In this document: piece by piece, positions 34,374-41,495 of the stretch
Numbering within the stretch: the first letter of the stretch is position 1
How the letters are laid out: every line of letters begins with the position of its first letter
Source: Planctomycetota bacterium
Lineage (GTDB): Bacteria > Planctomycetota > SZUA-567 > H5-PLA8
NCBI GenBank assembly: GCA_038227875.1
Contig: JBBRPR010000009.1
Coordinates: 1-64,000 of the forward strand
Reading direction: 5' to 3'
Length of the DNA: 64,000 nt
The notes under the pieces: model-generated
Seen by the model: the letters and a program-made list of their open reading frames with translations, nothing else
Told to the model about the DNA's origin: nothing
The model's database searches: none
Program-made: the position numbers and the translations under genes

Positions 34374-36434
34374 TTAGACCTCCACTTCCTTCAACTGCCG
34401 GCTTTTCGCCGCCGCCACGATCGGGCCGGCGATGTTCGGCGGGACGACGTCGTAGTGCGAAAACTCGACGGTGTAGAATCCTTCGCCGCCGGTGATCGCC
34501 TTCAATTCCGCCGAGTAATTCTGCAGCGCCGACGCCGGCACCTGCGCCCGGACGACCTGCAGATCGCCGAGCTGATCCATGCCCTGGATGCGCCCGCGAT
34601 GGCCGCTGAGGTGGCCGGTGATGTCGCCCATGAATTTTCCCGGCAGCACCACTTCCAAATTCACAATCGGCTCGATCAACTGCGGCTTGGCCTTTTCGAA
34701 TGCCTCCTTAAAACATTCGCGCGCCGCAATCTGGAATGCGATGTCTTTGGAATCGACGTCGTGATACTTGCCGTCGTTCAAACGCACCTTGACGTCGACG
34801 ACCGGAATGCCCGGCCACACGCCTTCGGCCATCTTGCTGACCACGCCCTTTTCGCAGGAAGGAATGAACTGCCGCGGAATCACGCCGCCGACGATCTCGT
34901 CGATGAATTCGAAACCGTTGCCCAGATTCGGTTCGATCTTGATCTGGCAGCGCCCGTACTGTCCCGCGCCACCGCTCTGCTTTTTGTGCGTATACGCCAC
35001 TTCCGCGACGCCGGCGATTGTCGAGCGGTACGGAATCTTCGGCGCATGCGTCACGACTTCGATGTGCTGCGCCTTCAGCCGGTGGAGCATCAAATCCAGG
35101 TGCGTCTGCCCCATGCCGCGGATCACGAGCTCGTGCGTCTGCGGGTCGACTTCGACGACAAACGACGGATCGCCTTCCGCGAACTGCCGCAGTCGCTGGC
35201 CGACCTTCGCTTCATCGTTGCGGTTCTTCGCCTCGATCGCCAGCGCCTGCATCGGCGGCGAGACGGGAATCGGCGGCAGGTACCAGCCCGTATCGTCCGT
35301 CGAGAGCGTGTCGCCAAAGTTCAGACTTTCGCACTTCGGGATCGCCACGATTTCGCCGCACGAGACGCCGTCCTGCTCCTTGGTGTCCTTGCCCTGGACG
35401 CTGAGCACATGCATGAACTTTTCCGGCTTGGCCGCGGAGGAACTCTTGGCCACACCGCCCACTGGCAGCGTGCCGGAAAAGACGCGCAGGTAACTGATCT
35501 TCCCGATGAACGGATCGCGCTTGCTCTTGATCACCTGCGCGAAGAGCGGTCCTGATGCCGACGGCGTCACGATGCGTTCTTCGTAGCCGCCAGGCTTGTC
35601 CGTAGCCTTGCGGCGCAGATGGATCGGCTCGTCGAGCGGCGAGGGGCCTTCCTCATCAATGAAGTGGAGCAGTTCCTTGATGCCGATGTCCTTCTCCGCT
35701 GAGACGCAGACAACCGGGACCATTGCTCCGCTGGTCATGCCCTTGGTGAAGCAATGTGCGATCTCTTCGTGCGAGATTTTTTCGTCCGCGAGGTAACGCT
35801 CCAGCACTTTCTCATCGGAGGAAACCGCCGTCTCCACGAGGCTGGCGTGCATCGCCTTCGCCTGTTCCTGGAGGTGTTCCGGCACCGTGCCGATCTCATC
35901 AAAGAGGTTGATCACGCCCTTGAAATCCTTGTTCTCACCGACGGGCAGAAACAGCGGCGCGACCGTTTTGCCGAAGACTTCACGGAGCTGATCCAGCACT
36001 TGCTCGAATTTCGCGCGTTCGTGATCCATCTTGGTGATCACGAAGACCTTCGGCCGTTCCAGCGCCGTGGCCATGCCCCACAATTTGCGCGTCATCACTT
36101 CCACGCCCGCGACGGCGCTGACGGCGATCAGCGTGGTCTCGGTTGCCGCCATGCCTTCGGCCGCGCCGGAGACAAAATCGGGCAGGCCGGGGCAGTCGAG
36201 CAGGTGGACGCGCTTGCCGTGAAAATCGAAATGGGCGATCGACGTTTCGATCGAATGCAGGCGTTCTTTTTCATCCGGATCGAAATCGCTGACAGTGTTT
36301 TTCTCGGCGATCGTGCCTTTTTTGCGAATGGCGCCCGCCGCGAAGAGCAGGGCTTCGGTCAGCGTGGTTTTGCCGGTGCCATTGTGTCCAACGAGAGCCA
36401 CATTGCGGATATTTTCGGGGGCGATTTTAGCCAT
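34374..36434 (-). CDS. Elongation factor G paralogue (EF-G2-like)
   Basis: Full EF-G architecture (HKKQSGGAGQYG, DGKYHDVDS) with divergent GTPase motifs GHNGTGKTT, ERLHSI, DCPGL; AGGAGG RBS. Confidence 0.92.
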   Translation of the reverse strand: MAKIAPENIRNVALVGHNGTGKTTLTEALLFAAGAIRKKGTIAEKNTVSDFDPDEKERLHSIETSIAHFDFHGKRVHLLDCPGLPDFVSGAAEGMAATETTLIAVSAVAGVEVMTRKLWGMATALERPKVFVITKMDHERAKFEQVLDQLREVFGKTVAPLFLPVGENKDFKGVINLFDEIGTVPEHLQEQAKAMHASLVETAVSSDEKVLERYLADEKISHEEIAHCFTKGMTSGAMVPVVCVSAEKDIGIKELLHFIDEEGPSPLDEPIHLRRKATDKPGGYEERIVTPSASGPLFAQVIKSKRDPFIGKISYLRVFSGTLPVGGVAKSSSAAKPEKFMHVLSVQGKDTKEQDGVSCGEIVAIPKCESLNFGDTLSTDDTGWYLPPIPVSPPMQALAIEAKNRNDEAKVGQRLRQFAEGDPSFVVEVDPQTHELVIRGMGQTHLDLMLHRLKAQHIEVVTHAPKIPYRSTIAGVAEVAYTHKKQSGGAGQYGRCQIKIEPNLGNGFEFIDEIVGGVIPRQFIPSCEKGVVSKMAEGVWPGIPVVDVKVRLNDGKYHDVDSKDIAFQIAARECFKEAFEKAKPQLIEPIVNLEVVLPGKFMGDITGHLSGHRGRIQGMDQLGDLQVVRAQVPASALQNYSAELKAITGGEGFYTVEFSHYDVVPPNIAGPIVAAAKSRQLKEVEV

Positions 36435-36494: not shown

Positions 36495-36695
36495 AAAACA
36501 AAAAAGCGAGACCTGCAGGTCTCGCTTTTTACTTACGTTTTGGTTCAACCCAGCCGCAAGAGCAGTCCCCCACGGAAGCTCTTACGGCCCAGTCATCAGG
36601 CCCGGTATGATCCCCAGTACCCATACCTCTTCTATACCCCTGTTTTAAGCCTGTCGCAAGGCCGAAACATAACACTATCACAGGGATTTGACCCG
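36495..36695 (-). ncRNA. Candidate structured RNA or attenuator leader
   Basis: Several stems whose G-U pairs favour the minus strand (CCGTAAGAGC/GCTCTTGCGG, GGTATG/CATACC, CCCTGT/ACAGGG), ending at the terminator. Confidence 0.5.
36501..36530 (-). terminator. Strong intrinsic terminator upstream of the EF-G paralogue
   Basis: Perfect 30-bp palindrome AAAAAGCGAGACCTGCAGGTCTCGCTTTTT with a longer T-rich tract on the minus strand. Confidence 0.85.
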
Positions 36696-37049
36696 TTAGC
36701 TGCGTCGTTGCTGTTTTCCATTTCAACATTCTTGTGAATGCGAAATTCAACGCGAGTGAAGGCGCGCTGGCCTTCAATAAAAAGTGAAAATTGAGAAACG
36801 GAAAATCGAAGATGCACTTTCGTTCACGGGTCAAAAAACTTTCCAACTTAACTCTTGCACAGGGACCCTTCGTATGATTAGATCAGGCTCATGGTGCTGA
36901 GCTAGGACGCTAGTCAGCAATGACCGATTCACATCTGGTTTCGCCGCAAGCCGGCTGGTCTCGCGTACTTCAGTGTACGCCCCCGGTTGCTACCTTCTCC
37001 AAGGTGGCCAGGCCCAACCAGAGGGGCTCGCAGAACAGGAGGTGATCCA

Positions 37050-37097
37050 GTGAGTAGTTGTAAACCCTACGGTGACCGGAGGTGGCTGTCCGCGTAA
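37050..37097 (+). CDS. Putative 15-aa micro-ORF MSSCKPYGDRRWLSA inside the RNA
   Basis: GTG start directly after AGGAGGTGATCCA; TAA at 37095-37097. Confidence 0.45.
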   Translation: MSSCKPYGDRRWLSA

Positions 37098-37300
37098 GAA
37101 GGGACGGTACTTGTTGGTGCCACTGGAACCTCTCGATGCACTTCATCAGTAGTCGAAAGAGTTCTGCAAGTGAAGACCGCCGCGTTCATGCGGGCCTGAT
37201 CTTTAAGAACCGTTGATCATGGTCCTTGACTGACGCAGTTACCGAGTAAGTCTCTCGGGGCTGACGGGCCTCATGCGCGTGACAGCCTTTGTAATCACCG

Positions 37301-37337
37301 CCGGCCTCCACAGTGATGTGGAGGCCGGAGTTTTTTT
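37301..37337 (+). terminator. Intrinsic terminator
   Basis: CCGGCCTCCACA-GTGA-TGTGGAGGCCGG-AG-TTTTTTT. Confidence 0.9.
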
Positions 37338-37465
37338 ATCCCATCGCCAAGCCCATCCGCCCTAATAATTTCGACTTTTCATTGGTCACCCGCCACGAAT
37401 CGCTTTCTTAGCCGCGTCAGCAGGAGGTCACGCCTCCTCCGCACATCCAAGCTAAGGAGCGACCC

Positions 37466-38326
37466 ATGGCCGCGTATCGGTTGGAATCCCCCACTAGATT
37501 TCTGAACGCCATGTGCTCGATCACGCAGAGCGAACTGCATCCGCAAAATACGGTAACGTTGATTTCGGAAGTAGACCTGACTGAAGTGGAAAGCATTCGT
37601 CGTCGTTCGCTGGCCGGATCCAAGCCTTCTTACACGGCCTTCGTGGCCAAGGCGGTTGCGCTGGCGCTGCGGGAATTTCCCTACGCCAATCGGCGGCTGG
37701 CGCGTCTGCCCTTTCTGGGCCTGCGTCTGCAAACCTTTCAACGCATCGATGCCGCGATCCTTTGCGAGCGGGAAATGCCAGAAGCGCCCATGTTGGCTTT
37801 CGTGGATGTGATCCGCAACGCGGACAATCTTTCGCTATCTGAAACCACGGAGCGCCTGCGAGCCCTGGCCACGTGCGACGAATCGAACAACAAGCAATGG
37901 CGCGAATTCAAAACCATCATCACCACGCTGCCGTCGTGGATTGCTCAGCGGATCATCGGACTCCCGCTGCTCTTTCCCAGCCTGTGGATGAAATATCGAG
38001 GCGGGGCGTTTTCGATCAGTTCGCCGGCGAAGTATGGCGTGGATTCAATCGTTGCCACATGGCCCTGGCCGTTGGGCGTGTCGTTCGGCCTGGTCAAGCC
38101 GCGCGCCGTGATACGGAACGGGCAGGTTGTCGTCCGGACCACGTTCAATCTCACACTCAATTTCGACCGGCGGATCATGGCCGGCGCACAAGCCGCGCGT
38201 TTCTTCAAGCGCATAGTCGACATCCTGGAAAACGCCACTATCGAGATGGAGCCGTATCTCCCGGCAACGGCACCCGTAAGCAACGGTGCTTCTGCTACAA
38301 AGGCCGCCGCGTTCGTGCGGGTCTGA
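37466..38326 (+). CDS. Stand-alone 2-oxoacid dehydrogenase E2 acyltransferase-like domain
   Basis: SYTAFVAKAVALALREFPYAN, GAFSISS, LTLNFDRRIMAGAQAARF; no lipoyl domain; AAGGAG RBS. Confidence 0.85.
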   Translation: MAAYRLESPTRFLNAMCSITQSELHPQNTVTLISEVDLTEVESIRRRSLAGSKPSYTAFVAKAVALALREFPYANRRLARLPFLGLRLQTFQRIDAAILCEREMPEAPMLAFVDVIRNADNLSLSETTERLRALATCDESNNKQWREFKTIITTLPSWIAQRIIGLPLLFPSLWMKYRGGAFSISSPAKYGVDSIVATWPWPLGVSFGLVKPRAVIRNGQVVVRTTFNLTLNFDRRIMAGAQAARFFKRIVDILENATIEMEPYLPATAPVSNGASATKAAAFVRV

Positions 38327-38345: not shown

Positions 38346-41300
38346 CTACTTGCCCTTGAATGGAATCGGTGCGATTCCGGCCTTGCGCGCTTCGTCAATT
38401 TCGATTCGAACGAACATTGGATTGTTAGTGTTCTCTTCCATGCGTTGAGTCGCCGAATTAATGGCGTACATCAAGACTTGCGAGGACATCTCGGTCCGTA
38501 GTTGTTCCGCGCGTTCTGAATCCAATTTGGCGTAGTTCTTGTTCTTCAGATCTGTTTCACCGAGCACGGTGGTCTCGATGCAATAGCTGCGTGTTTTTGC
38601 TGCGTCCAAGTAGAAGCCAACGAAGCAATGATTTGGCGTCAGAACGAGGTAAACGTCGATTCCCATTTTCTTGAGAATCGACGCGAAGAGCACACTGCCG
38701 TCGACGCAGTTTGCCTGTTCCGACGAGAGCGAGTCTTCGAGCAGGCGCACGTGTTGACTGATGATTTTGTCGGAGCGGCCCGCGGTGCTGGTGATGCTGC
38801 TGTATTTGATTCCCCGATTTGCCAGCGCGTGCCAGACAGCTTCCACCTGCTCAAACACCTGACCATTTTGATAACCGGTGATGGACTGGATGTGATTGGT
38901 CTTCATCGCTTCGACCAGAATTTTCTGAACCTCAGGATGATCTTCGTTGACATACGCCGCGACCATCCAGCCCATATTGATGACCGGCACACGAACGTCG
39001 GTGCCGCGCATGCGAATGGGGCAATCGTTAATCGGCCTGAGCGACAGCGTCTCGTTCCGCTCTCCAATTTGGACCCCGTTTTCAAACACGGTGATCGTGA
39101 GCGTTATTGGCGTCAATTGCTTGCACTGTTGAAGCTTGTCGAATTTGTACGTAATCTTTGGCTTGATCAGATACGCTTCGCCGGCCTTGGGTAGAACTTC
39201 CTCGCACGTGCTGGGTTCGATAATTCCATCCGCTTTGAATTGAACTTTTATTTTAGCTCCGGCGGCCTGTCCTCTGACTCGTATGCCGAACATTCCTTCC
39301 ATTTCGCCCAGCTCGTGAGGATCTCCGGCCATCCGGGTTTTCTTTTTGTTGGCGGTGGCAATGATGTAGGACGGGAAAATGTTTCGATCCATTTCCAATA
39401 TGGGTTGCCATTCCAACCCGGCCGGCGTTTTTGATGTGACAGATGGATTTTCCACCCAGGCATGCTCAGCGACGGGAGGCATCTGAAGTTCGCCCTGTTT
39501 CACATTATGAGCAAATTCAAGCGGCGAGGGCTTCGCCATATGCTGCAAGTGCGCCCGAGCCCGGGCTTCTCCAATCATATCCGCCAGGAACAACGGAGCC
39601 ATCCAGGCCATGTGGCCCATGTCATTGCCTTCCACCTGTGTGGATACGATCAGTCCGGAGCCGCCATTCTTCATGGTTAACGAGACACGCGCGTCGCCTT
39701 CGGAGAGTTCGTCCATGCGACGCAGAATGAGTTCGGATCCGTCGCTGCCTTTCATGTGTTCGATGAAATCGGGATAGGATCGCAGCACGCGCAGGCATTG
39801 CTGCATCGAGCATTCAATCGCGAAGATCTGGGCTCCGCCGCATTGCGGCGTCCACGTGGATTCCGTAGTGGACGCGACCCGGCGGATGATTTCGACGTCG
39901 TTGCTGACCAGCAGAAAGTCATCGACGATGCCAAAGGACATGAAATCGGCAGCGCTCGAACTCAGCACGACGTTCTTGCCGCTATCCGTCTTTGGATTTC
40001 TGCCGTAATCGTTCCGTTGCACGGCGCCGAATTTCTCCATGGACTGTTTGGCCAGCGCCAAGGCCGCGTTGGAATCCGTGTATCGAATAAAGAATACGCT
40101 GCGTGGCTCCTTGACCGATCCCGTCGGGCTATACAAAGCCAATCCAAATGTTCCGTCCGTCAGTATTGTGTTCAAATTTGACGGCGGGATGCCATAGCCT
40201 TCGCAGAATCCACGCTTTACGGCGTCCCAGTCCTGACCCATCGTGCGACGCCCGAAATCATCAAGATTTTTCAGGCTGAACGTCATTGCCAGCATGGGTT
40301 TTCCCATGCGACCCAGCAACCCGGCGCTCGACTGTCGTCCGTCGATTTCGCTTAGGAGGTGGGACGTCTTTGCGAAGAGAACGTGCGCGGCGCTGGTGAG
40401 CTTTTCATTTGAAAAGGCAATGCCCCGGACCTCATCAATCACTTTTGGTGGTTTGATCCATGACGGCAGCATTTCAAAGGTTCGGGCCAGGCTGAAGTAC
40501 CCTGAAAACTCGCCGTTCTTCTGAAGCGGCGCAACGGCAGACTTGAAATCATCCATGTCCGACAACGGCGGGTTATCGCGCTCTTGGAGAAAGGGCTTGA
40601 TCACGCCATCGACGGCAAATCGGCTCAGAGGCAACCCGATCAGAATCCGTCCTTTGACGACAGTCATTTCGATCACATCGGGCACGCGGTATACGATCTG
40701 GCTGGTGCCGGTTTCGGTAATTTTCGCGCCCTGGGCTTCGCAAATTTTGCGAAATGTCGTCAGCGGCGTGGCTTCGTCCAACGCCCAGGCACTGATCACG
40801 ATGCCCTGAACTTCACGCTGGACCACAATTGAAATTGGATGGGATAAATCAATTCCGGCCTTGGTGTAGTCCTTGGGATTGAAAATGTCGAAACTGGTCG
40901 ATTCTTTCACCTGCGCCGCCGCTGCTTTTATTTCTTTCGCGCCTGGGCTGGAGGAGTTTTTCGCAACCTGCTCCACGAAGGAAGTCAGACTTTTGTCCGG
41001 ATGCGAAATGGAAAAGACGGCCAAGCTGTCAGACGGTGCATGAGCCGCTTCGGTCAAGGCGTCGGGTTCCGCAGCGACAACCACCGGAGGCGGCGGAGTC
41101 AGGATGCTCATGCCCACAAAGAGGGCCACCGCCAGGATGGCTACGATTCCGCCCGCAATTAGATATATTTTCAAACCGCGGCCTTCAGGCGCCGGCGATT
41201 CTGGCTCTGTGTAGACGTGCGAGGAAGGGGCAACAATGGCAGGCGCCATGGGTTCCGGCACCGCCGGTGAAGCGACGGTTCCCTGCGGAACTTCGACTGG

Positions 41301-41495
41301 AGCGGCCGCGGGTGCGGGAGCGGCGGATCGGTTCAGCGCCGCCATTTCTCCGGCCGGCGTCCACACCGCCTGGTCCGATGAGACCGAGTGAAATTTGGTG
41401 ACTTGCCCCATTTGGTAGAGGCGTCCCAATTCGTCCAGCGAGTAAGGCCCTATGATTTTTCCACGCCAGCGGACAAAGTACGGACCATTACTCAT
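38346..41495 (-). CDS. GYF_2-like domain + TM + DUF3352-like region + transglutaminase-like C-terminal domain
   Basis: YFVRWRGKIIGPYSLDEL...W; TM at about aa 110-130; ANCVDGSVLFASIL...PNHCFVG...IETT. Confidence 0.78.
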   Translation of the reverse strand: MSNGPYFVRWRGKIIGPYSLDELGRLYQMGQVTKFHSVSSDQAVWTPAGEMAALNRSAAPAPAAAPVEVPQGTVASPAVPEPMAPAIVAPSSHVYTEPESPAPEGRGLKIYLIAGGIVAILAVALFVGMSILTPPPPVVVAAEPDALTEAAHAPSDSLAVFSISHPDKSLTSFVEQVAKNSSSPGAKEIKAAAAQVKESTSFDIFNPKDYTKAGIDLSHPISIVVQREVQGIVISAWALDEATPLTTFRKICEAQGAKITETGTSQIVYRVPDVIEMTVVKGRILIGLPLSRFAVDGVIKPFLQERDNPPLSDMDDFKSAVAPLQKNGEFSGYFSLARTFEMLPSWIKPPKVIDEVRGIAFSNEKLTSAAHVLFAKTSHLLSEIDGRQSSAGLLGRMGKPMLAMTFSLKNLDDFGRRTMGQDWDAVKRGFCEGYGIPPSNLNTILTDGTFGLALYSPTGSVKEPRSVFFIRYTDSNAALALAKQSMEKFGAVQRNDYGRNPKTDSGKNVVLSSSAADFMSFGIVDDFLLVSNDVEIIRRVASTTESTWTPQCGGAQIFAIECSMQQCLRVLRSYPDFIEHMKGSDGSELILRRMDELSEGDARVSLTMKNGGSGLIVSTQVEGNDMGHMAWMAPLFLADMIGEARARAHLQHMAKPSPLEFAHNVKQGELQMPPVAEHAWVENPSVTSKTPAGLEWQPILEMDRNIFPSYIIATANKKKTRMAGDPHELGEMEGMFGIRVRGQAAGAKIKVQFKADGIIEPSTCEEVLPKAGEAYLIKPKITYKFDKLQQCKQLTPITLTITVFENGVQIGERNETLSLRPINDCPIRMRGTDVRVPVINMGWMVAAYVNEDHPEVQKILVEAMKTNHIQSITGYQNGQVFEQVEAVWHALANRGIKYSSITSTAGRSDKIISQHVRLLEDSLSSEQANCVDGSVLFASILKKMGIDVYLVLTPNHCFVGFYLDAAKTRSYCIETTVLGETDLKNKNYAKLDSERAEQLRTEMSSQVLMYAINSATQRMEENTNNPMFVRIEIDEARKAGIAPIPFKGK

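Follow-up and report, generated by a model that had tools for sequence, protein, structure and literature searches.

The closest described counterparts of the RNA reported here are the rre RNAs of Alphaproteobacteria (Hahn et al., RNA Biol 2016, PMC5711450). There, rreB is a 165-nucleotide (nt) stand-alone mRNA of Bradyrhizobiaceae with its own promoter and terminator, in which a 17-nt complement to the 3′ end of 16S ribosomal RNA (rRNA) takes in the initial base of the GTG that opens a 14-codon open reading frame (ORF); rreR of Rhodobacterales has an 18-codon ORF. According to the paper, rreB co-sediments with the 30S ribosomal subunit, is weakly translated and is stabilised when its start codon is replaced, and rre RNAs are reported only from four alphaproteobacterial orders, with function unknown. 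No other natural mRNAs are described as pairing with the 16S 3′ tail in its entirety, and a literature search for rreB and rreR found no follow-up to the 2016 paper. We analysed a 64,000-nt stretch of DNA from a Planctomycetota bacterium (assembly GCA_038227875.1, contig JBBRPR010000009.1, positions 1 to 64,000; hereafter the window) and found that positions 36891-37337 of its + strand hold a conserved, stand-alone, structured RNA that, judged from sequence, carries a micro-ORF behind an unusually long 16S-complementary site. Our literature search on structured RNAs and small ORFs of planctomycetes found nothing on this RNA. We read it as a stand-alone small mRNA of the rre type that probably matters chiefly through its dealings with the ribosome and less through its peptide, and give this reading a probability of roughly 0.6.

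The predicted ribosome binding site (RBS; 37034..37052, + strand) contains AGGAGGTGATCCAG at 37037-37050, a stretch of 14 nt that is complementary to the 16S 3′ tail and runs into the GTG start codon at 37050-52, the final G of the tract being base 1 of that codon; RBS and start together read AGGAGGTGATCCAGTGAGT. Because the assembly of the window has no 16S gene, two near-complete relatives in its family supplied the tail sequence (16S ending in ...GGCTGGATCACCTCCTTTCT). GGAGG occurs 11,293 times in the 9.34-Mb genome, counted over both strands, and no other occurrence has an uninterrupted complement to the 16S tail as long as the one at 37037; five sites follow at 12 nt and none has 13 nt. 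The 14-nt complement exceeds chance. The micro-ORF (37050..37097, + strand) comprises 15 codons, MSSCKPYGDRRWLSA, followed by TAA at 37095-97, and a second GGAGG resembling a Shine-Dalgarno (SD) sequence lies inside it at 37078-82 (+ strand), 12 nt ahead of the stop codon. Both the tract and the 15-codon ORF had been pointed out in an initial annotation made from the sequence of the window, and both were confirmed.

Of 16 other genomes in the family, 14 gave BLAST matches to the region; the two without a match are 83% and 91% complete. None of 44 genomes of other families in the same order or class matched the RNA region by BLAST. A degenerate pattern of the RBS and ORF core was found in 14 genome contigs, all titled Planctomycetota metagenome-assembled genomes, and in 22 metagenome contigs. 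Within the family of the window, the aligned conserved unit spans 346-507 nt, from a TTGCRC/TTGACA box through the terminator. More distant copies were sought in 151 sampled Planctomycetota genomes with two models. Model R1, which describes the 5′ domain and the ORF, matched seven genomes outside the family, six of which hold on inspection, and one of these matches seeded BLAST searches in another family (f57), in which all 11 genomes carry a version of ~200-230 nt. Model R2, built from f57, matched 19 of the 151 genomes, and 14 of its 15 weak matches hold on inspection. Two weak matches were discarded on inspection (L070 for R1 and L097 for R2). The verified total is 24 of 151 genomes in 16 families, namely the family of the window and 15 families with shorter versions of ~200-230 nt; given the limited reach of the models, this is a lower bound. 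No copy was found by BLAST or with R1 and R2 in the other 127 genomes, nor in a small-genome sister family of the same class (f4, 31 genomes), results that may reflect the limits of the models.

Comparison of 52 distinct copies suggests that the extended tract and the micro-ORF are the most conserved parts of the RNA and are retained across the 16 Planctomycetota families, a conclusion supported by the alignments. The complement to the 16S tail measures 8-18 nt when only perfect pairs are counted and 10-18 nt when G.U pairs are allowed, with at least 13 nt in 48 copies. Other copies of the window's family have 10-15 nt of perfect complement, and 16-18 nt with one G.U pair in 20 of 25; two distant copies carry a complement of 17-18 nt that ends at the G of GTG. 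The ORF is in frame in every copy. It has 14-16 codons in all 51 loci found with the pattern or BLAST, where the pattern had fixed only the YG[DE].R core and left frame and stop free, and 9-17 codons in all 52 distinct copies; frame and stop codon were likewise not built into R1 and R2. Start codons are GTG (40 copies), ATG (9) and TTG (3), and stop codons TAA (25), TAG (18) and TGA (9). GGAGG occurs within the ORF in 37 of the 52 copies, and an internal SD-like element lies at a spacing of 12 nt from the stop in 34 copies and 9 nt in 14 (48/52 together).

The encoded peptides are short, hydrophilic and Arg-rich. In the window's family 25 copies fit M[ST]..[KR].YG[DE]RR.LS., and 10 copies of f57 fit M.GSPN[RK][RK]P.., and a pair of Arg residues close to the C-terminus is seen repeatedly in different families. 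This degree of conservation within families would suit an ordinary gene for a functional micro-peptide of 14-16 amino acids (aa) that acts with a partner, the RNA structure only tuning stability or translation, and the rreB authors likewise favour conserved small proteins (PMC5711450). We regard such a gene as unlikely. Between families the peptides can hardly be aligned and their lengths range from 9 to 17 aa, and the Arg pair stems from the nucleotide motif GGAGG, which one copy (L067) reads in a different frame. Codon third positions are almost invariant, which argues for constraint at the RNA level. Residue 12 varies among W, L, R, C and E alongside compensatory changes in a long-range helix, P6 (described below); because these radical replacements coincide with compensation in P6, we think that it is the frame of the ORF rather than the peptide that is selected. 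Moreover, ~400 nt of covarying structure exceeds the needs of a 45-nt ORF.

The fold of the RNA is supported by covariation. A 5′ hairpin, P1 (36895..36919, + strand; TGCTGAG-CTAG / CTAG-TCAGCA with the loop GACG at 36906-09), has nine pairs, seven of which are changed on both sides (for example, columns 17/37 are UA in 13 sequences and CG in 9), and the GACG-loop hairpin is present in distant families too. It is followed by a 5′ domain (36933..37023, + strand) identified by covariation analysis, which comprises P2 (TCTGGTT/AACCAGA, 36934-40 / 37016-22), P2b (GCC/GGC), P3 (AGCCGG/CCGGTT), P4 (GCGTAC 36963-68 / GTACGC 36975-80) and P5 (GCTACCTT 36989-96 / AAGGTGGC 37001-08, loop CTCC). In 28 distinct sequences, 21 of the 25 pairs of P2-P5 show changes on both sides, and 89.2% of alignment cells are paired, compared with 74.0% in shuffles (0 of 500 reach the observed value) and 33-51% for slid partners; fitting the alignment to R1 biases it toward the structure. 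The initial annotation had listed the stems of P1, P2, P4 and P5, and all of them covary. Another listed stem, GCAGAAC/GTTCTGC, has its 3′ arm within a stretch that cannot be aligned between homologues.

The 3′ half of the ORF pairs with a distant segment. The 5′ strand of P6 (TGGCTGTCCGCGTAAGA, 37083..37099, + strand) spans the final five codons and the stop codon plus 2 nt, and per-sequence duplex calculation places its 3′ strand (CTCATGCGCGTGACAGCCT) at 37270..37288 (+ strand). The duplex has -24.6 kcal/mol in the window. All 25 distinct sequences of the family form it, at -13.1 to -26.9 kcal/mol, and compensatory changes occur in it. For example, TGG->TTG occurs with GCC->GCG, CTG->TTG with CAG->CAA, and GCG->TCG with CGCG->CGGG or CGAG. 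These linked changes argue that the 3′ half of the ORF is constrained as RNA. The five inner pairs hold in 19-23 of 23 aligned sequences. The outer pairs are spoiled in the alignment (A1; 15-16 of 23) by a one-column misalignment of a bulge-less subgroup, and per-sequence duplexes were therefore used. A local hairpin at the stop codon (CTGTCC/GGACGG, predicted at 37086..37107, + strand), also noted initially, does exist and has counterparts in the short versions of other families, with the stop codon in the loop, but it competes with the better-supported P6.

P6 encloses a variable insertion (37108..37256, + strand) that includes a GATC hairpin (~37197-37221) and a CCGAG...CTCGG hairpin; the insertion can be aligned only inside subgroups and its length is 44-214 nt. 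A small hairpin, GGCT-GACG-GGCC (37257..37270, + strand; columns 510-513/536-539), has the same GACG loop as P1 and covaries, its four pairs being of GC, GU, AU and UA types, and in 26 of 27 short versions a YYGRCG-type motif (GACG-type loop) begins 4-14 nt past the stop codon. Just before the terminator lies ATCACC (37294..37299, + strand) with an invariant (T)CACC; its complements are GGTGA(T) in the SD and two further copies of GGTG. The pairing of the SD with ATCACC (columns 181-184/569-572) is GC, GC, UA, GC in 23 of 23 sequences, and such invariance means that covariation neither supports nor rejects it. A closing helix that the initial annotation had drawn between 36880-90 and 37192-202 was significant in the window only; 3 of 24 homologues gave p<=0.05, the partner differing each time, and the 5′ arm of the helix overlaps the promoter-like -10 box.

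In the window and in some clades the data support masking of the RBS in cis. An internal mimic of the 16S tail, CCACTGGAACCTCTC (37120..37134, + strand), is able to base-pair with the SD plus the GTG. Among duplexes between the RBS and the region past the ORF this one ranks first (-18.9 kcal/mol, p=0.037 against shuffles), which upholds the pairing with 37121-33 that had been proposed from the sequence. One clade has CACTGGCCGC[AG]TCCTTT, which pairs with the entire RBS over 17-19 bp. In the window's family the mask reaches p<=0.01 in 12 of 25 copies and p<=0.05 in 14 of 25, and among the short versions p<=0.05 in 7 of 27. A universal cis mask was rejected on these counts.

The RNA is predicted to be a gene of ~450 nt bounded by a promoter-like box and an intrinsic terminator, with five covarying helices at its 5′ side. 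Upstream, TTGCAC (36855-60) and TTAGAT (36878-83) are separated by 17 nt on the + strand and align with TTGCRC/TTGACA and TTAAAT/TTTAGT boxes in 14 homologues, and transcription is predicted to start near A36891. The boxes were picked by eye with the help of the homologue alignment, and a simple scan with the sigma-70 consensus called no site at the RNA gene. A promoter-like box had initially been placed at a TATGAT; by eye the TTGCAC/TTAGAT pair fits better. The terminator (37301-37337, + strand), whose strength had also been recognised initially, was found by terminator prediction and consists of a 12-bp G+C-rich stem with the loop AGTG (hairpin 37301-37328) followed by AG and T7. Its stem covaries (for example, columns 587/595 are GC in 8, CG in 6, UA in 4 and AU in 4 sequences).

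Coding potential across the region is low. The ORFs in the RNA interval of the window are only 40-58 aa long and have no Pfam match, so a protein gene was rejected. Antisense ORFs of 124-182 aa occur in some homologues and are absent from the window; the one checked (L025, 150 aa) has no Pfam match. Folding energy is below that of shuffled sequences on both strands (z = -4.4 for + and z = -5.3 for -). We assign the RNA to the + strand because the conserved ORF, the terminator and the many G.U pairs in the helices all fit that strand. A minus-strand 16S pseudogene or fragment was set aside for the same reason; only the 14-mer and a CCGTAGGG-like stretch are similar to the 16S end of relatives. 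In metatranscriptomes, six RNA-labelled runs contain 26-42% of the words sampled from the RNA. In four of these runs, from four studies (X7, X9, X13 and X16), contigs of 46-416 nt, many of them from relatives, fall within 36891-37299, and one starts at 36891; the same runs have no cover at 36600-36871 or 37314-37600. These contigs show neither strand nor ends and may derive from DNA, and missing cover proves nothing, so that they lend weak support to expression of the RNA.

Arranged as a mechanism, these features suggest how the RNA might work. By analogy with rreB, an SD sequence that pairs with the full 16S tail would dock the 30S subunit very firmly, and start-codon placement and clearance would be slow. 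In the free RNA the RBS would be at least partly masked, in the window by the mimic at 37120-34 and in addition by CACC and CTCC elements, while the last five codons and the stop codon would be locked in P6, which closes the whole 3′ domain. A ribosome that initiates would have to open P6 and the 3′ domain, and the GGAGG located 9-12 nt before the stop would be within reach of the anti-SD of a ribosome with the last sense codon in its P site. Engagement by ribosomes may thereby switch the fold of the RNA and probably its stability, the peptide being largely incidental. Binding of 30S, weak translation, the switch and any output are proposed from the anatomy of the RNA and the behaviour of rreB.

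Several observations weigh against this interpretation. We infer the transcription ends, the strand, 30S binding and translation of the RNA. Covarying stems and an extended SD are kept in homologues, as the initial annotation would have it, but the perfect 14-nt tract is found only in the window and a few relatives; most family members have one G.U pair or mismatch, and in four copies a mismatch restricts the complement to 10 nt. Matches of R1 and R2 contain the SD block by construction, which makes SD conservation in distant matches partly circular. A significant cis mask is missing in 11 of 25 family copies and 20 of 27 short versions. In thermodynamic folding the SD does not stand out (unpaired probability of GGAGG 0.01-0.67, close to the mean over all bases, ~0.33), and the predicted partners of the SD vary among homologues. 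The conservation of peptides within families (YGDRR in the window's family and GSPN[RK][RK]P in f57) is compatible with a peptide function. Finally, rreB itself has no known function and its overexpression has no effect on growth (PMC5711450).

The long tract could also serve without translation, if the RNA were a trap, sponge or hibernation RNA that titrates free 30S subunits and the ORF were a by-product. A complement to the whole tail that is conserved across the phylum would fit this, as would rreB, which binds 30S strongly and is translated poorly (PMC5711450). Such a sponge would have no need of an ORF of 9-17 codons, yet each of the 52 distinct copies has one, although indels occur and start and stop codons vary. 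The gene is single-copy in its 9.34-Mb genome, and the rreB authors argue that ribosomes greatly outnumber this RNA and that its overexpression does not slow growth (PMC5711450). We consider a sponge improbable.

The neighbourhood of the RNA gene is not conserved. Flanking genes vary between loci and are often on the opposite strand, downstream genes included, which argues for a stand-alone gene rather than a leader. Neighbours at other loci include SurE (four loci scanned with Pfam; a fifth, L035, was grouped with them by BLAST), S20 and an L3-like protein (two loci) and many unrelated genes. In the window the RNA lies next to a gene for an EF-G paralogue (34374-36434, - strand; 686 aa, all five EF-G domains, a strong SD AGGAGGTGCTCGACC ahead of the ATG), and the initial annotation had suggested a link between the two; this link was not borne out by synteny, since the flanking genes differ and EF-G adjoins the RNA only in the window. 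A bidirectional terminator-like hairpin (36501-36530) separates the RNA gene from the EF-G paralogue. It is located at the 3′ terminus of a 105-aa ORF (36529-36846, - strand) with no Pfam match, and this ORF, in place of EF-G, may be the RNA's divergent neighbour. On the other side, a 1049-aa ORF (38346-41495, - strand) has an N-terminal GYF_2 domain as its sole Pfam match (E=1.1e-5, just under the cut-off).

Further observations concern other loci. Two members of a single genus, g4 (L027 and L037), have an ORF for an L3-like ribosomal protein after the RNA gene, and L027 also has an S20 ORF before it; this translation-related neighbourhood is confined to g4. Short tandem repeats begin directly past the terminator in several copies: L004 has GGATTGTG-like units, L099 has GGGATCA-like units, and L006 has heptamers of the TTAGGGG and CAGGAGT types.

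Among known RNAs, no family accounts for the locus. An Rfam 15 scan at gathering thresholds, which covered RNase P, SRP, 6S, riboswitches, OLE, GOLLD and ROOL among other families, gave no match in the 64-kb window, and a permissive scan gave nothing relevant, the best match inside the RNA being CC2171 with 17.9 bits against a cut-off of 75. Together with the homologues and their covariation, these scans bear out the initial view of an unannotated structured RNA. Transfer-messenger RNA (tmRNA, RF00023) is similar in size, highly structured, has an internal short reading frame and deals with ribosomes; unlike it, the planctomycete RNA lacks tRNA-like ends and possesses an SD with a start codon. 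ARAGORN detected neither tRNA nor tmRNA in the region, and a divergent tmRNA was rejected because ARAGORN and RF00023 gave no match and a canonical tmRNA is present on another contig of the genome (G000:C116).

Type I toxin mRNAs, such as hok and AapA1, are inhibited by folding back, long-range pairing masking the RBS or ORF in the full-length transcript. A masked SD, long-range pairing between the ORF and the 3′ region, and a terminator behind the ORF would suit such a toxin mRNA, or a leader-peptide attenuator of the trp type that acts on a downstream gene. Either seems very improbable for the planctomycete RNA: its peptides (9-17 aa) are short, hydrophilic and Arg-rich and not membrane-like, no antitoxin RNA is evident, and no conserved antisense promoter was seen, none having been looked for. 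The terminator looks constitutive and lies at least 200 nt past the stop of the micro-ORF in the window's family, and an attenuator was rejected because the genes that follow downstream are not the same from locus to locus and often lie on the opposite strand. Another comparison involves the frameshift site of prfB (RF2), which has an internal SD-like element just ahead of a stop codon with a 3-nt spacing. The planctomycete ORF also has an SD-like GGAGG at a fixed short distance from its stop, but this spacing is initiation-like, and neither a slippery site nor an extended second frame was seen.

The rre RNAs are much closer, and the proposal in the initial annotation of a new class of RNA needs to be narrowed: the class is not wholly new, as rreB and rreR have the same RBS design and ORFs of 14-18 codons. 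The following comparison draws on the rre paper and its supplement (PMC5711450). In both groups the SD lies inside a 14-17-nt complement of the 16S tail that ends on the G of a GTG start, and the RBS in the rreB primers, which read ...CGAAAGGAGGTGATCCAGTGTCT..., is letter-for-letter equal to that of one distant planctomycete copy (L092). The tract of the window, at 14 nt ending in the G of GTG, has this form, though it is below the 16-nt cut-off used in the paper. The ORFs of both groups, 14-18 codons and mostly GTG-started in rre, are conserved within clades and not between them; the window has 15 codons with GTG, and GTG starts 40 of 52 planctomycete copies. The RBS is partly within a conserved helix in both, and genomic context is not conserved between lineages. 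The rre RNAs are stand-alone small transcripts with their own promoter and terminator, and the planctomycete RNA would be one too; in the window the terminator is clear and the promoter was recognised by eye only.

Differences are also evident. The planctomycete RNAs belong to a different phylum and measure 346-507 nt or ~200-230 nt, compared with 165 nt in rreB. A covarying 5′ domain of ~140 nt precedes their RBS, they have two GACG-loop hairpins, the 3′ end of their ORF is in a long-range helix, the ORF has an internal second GGAGG, and in the window's family most copies have one G.U pair in the tract. A BLAST search of plasmids with the RBS as query detected mostly 16S gene ends (for example, in Caballeronia) and one rre-like locus. 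This unannotated locus lies in Methylobacterium bullatum (L102; NZ_LR743510.1, 2300620-2300770), with CGAAAGGAGGTGATCCAGTG, a 24-codon ORF and a terminator-like hairpin, which extends the published rre set to Methylobacteriaceae. L102 has the RBS in common with the planctomycete RNA, but neither a 5′ domain nor a GACG hairpin is visible in it. When fragments covered by the rreB primers and this one Methylobacterium locus were compared by eye with the planctomycete RNA, the RBS and an M-S start were the only common elements visible.

The shared RBS does not decide between homology and convergence of the planctomycete and alphaproteobacterial RNAs, because such a site is dictated by the 16S tail. 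One might imagine that they form a single ancient ribosome-sensing class that reads the level of free 30S subunits, with the mimic competing for the site; passage of a ribosome would open P6, the internal GGAGG would re-capture it at the stop, and the 3′ domain with its two GACG loops would flip into a form active on a partner. On this extended scheme the RNA would be a translation-gated riboregulator or a ribosome-parking device instead of a protein gene, and we find the scheme doubtful. The occurrence of the RBS and micro-ORF design in a second, distant phylum (16 families, and all 11 genomes of one of them) speaks for strong selection on the design and against an alphaproteobacterial oddity. 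The planctomycete versions offer parts that may serve as mutational handles on the mutual regulation of ribosome and structured RNA, namely the stop-codon helix, the internal second SD, the two GACG loops and, in some clades, the 17-19-bp mimic, and they define a family that can be added to RNA family libraries. Among the systems described so far, the RNA fits best with the rre-type small mRNAs, as a much enlarged representative from a new phylum that has conserved parts of its own in addition to the common RBS and micro-ORF.

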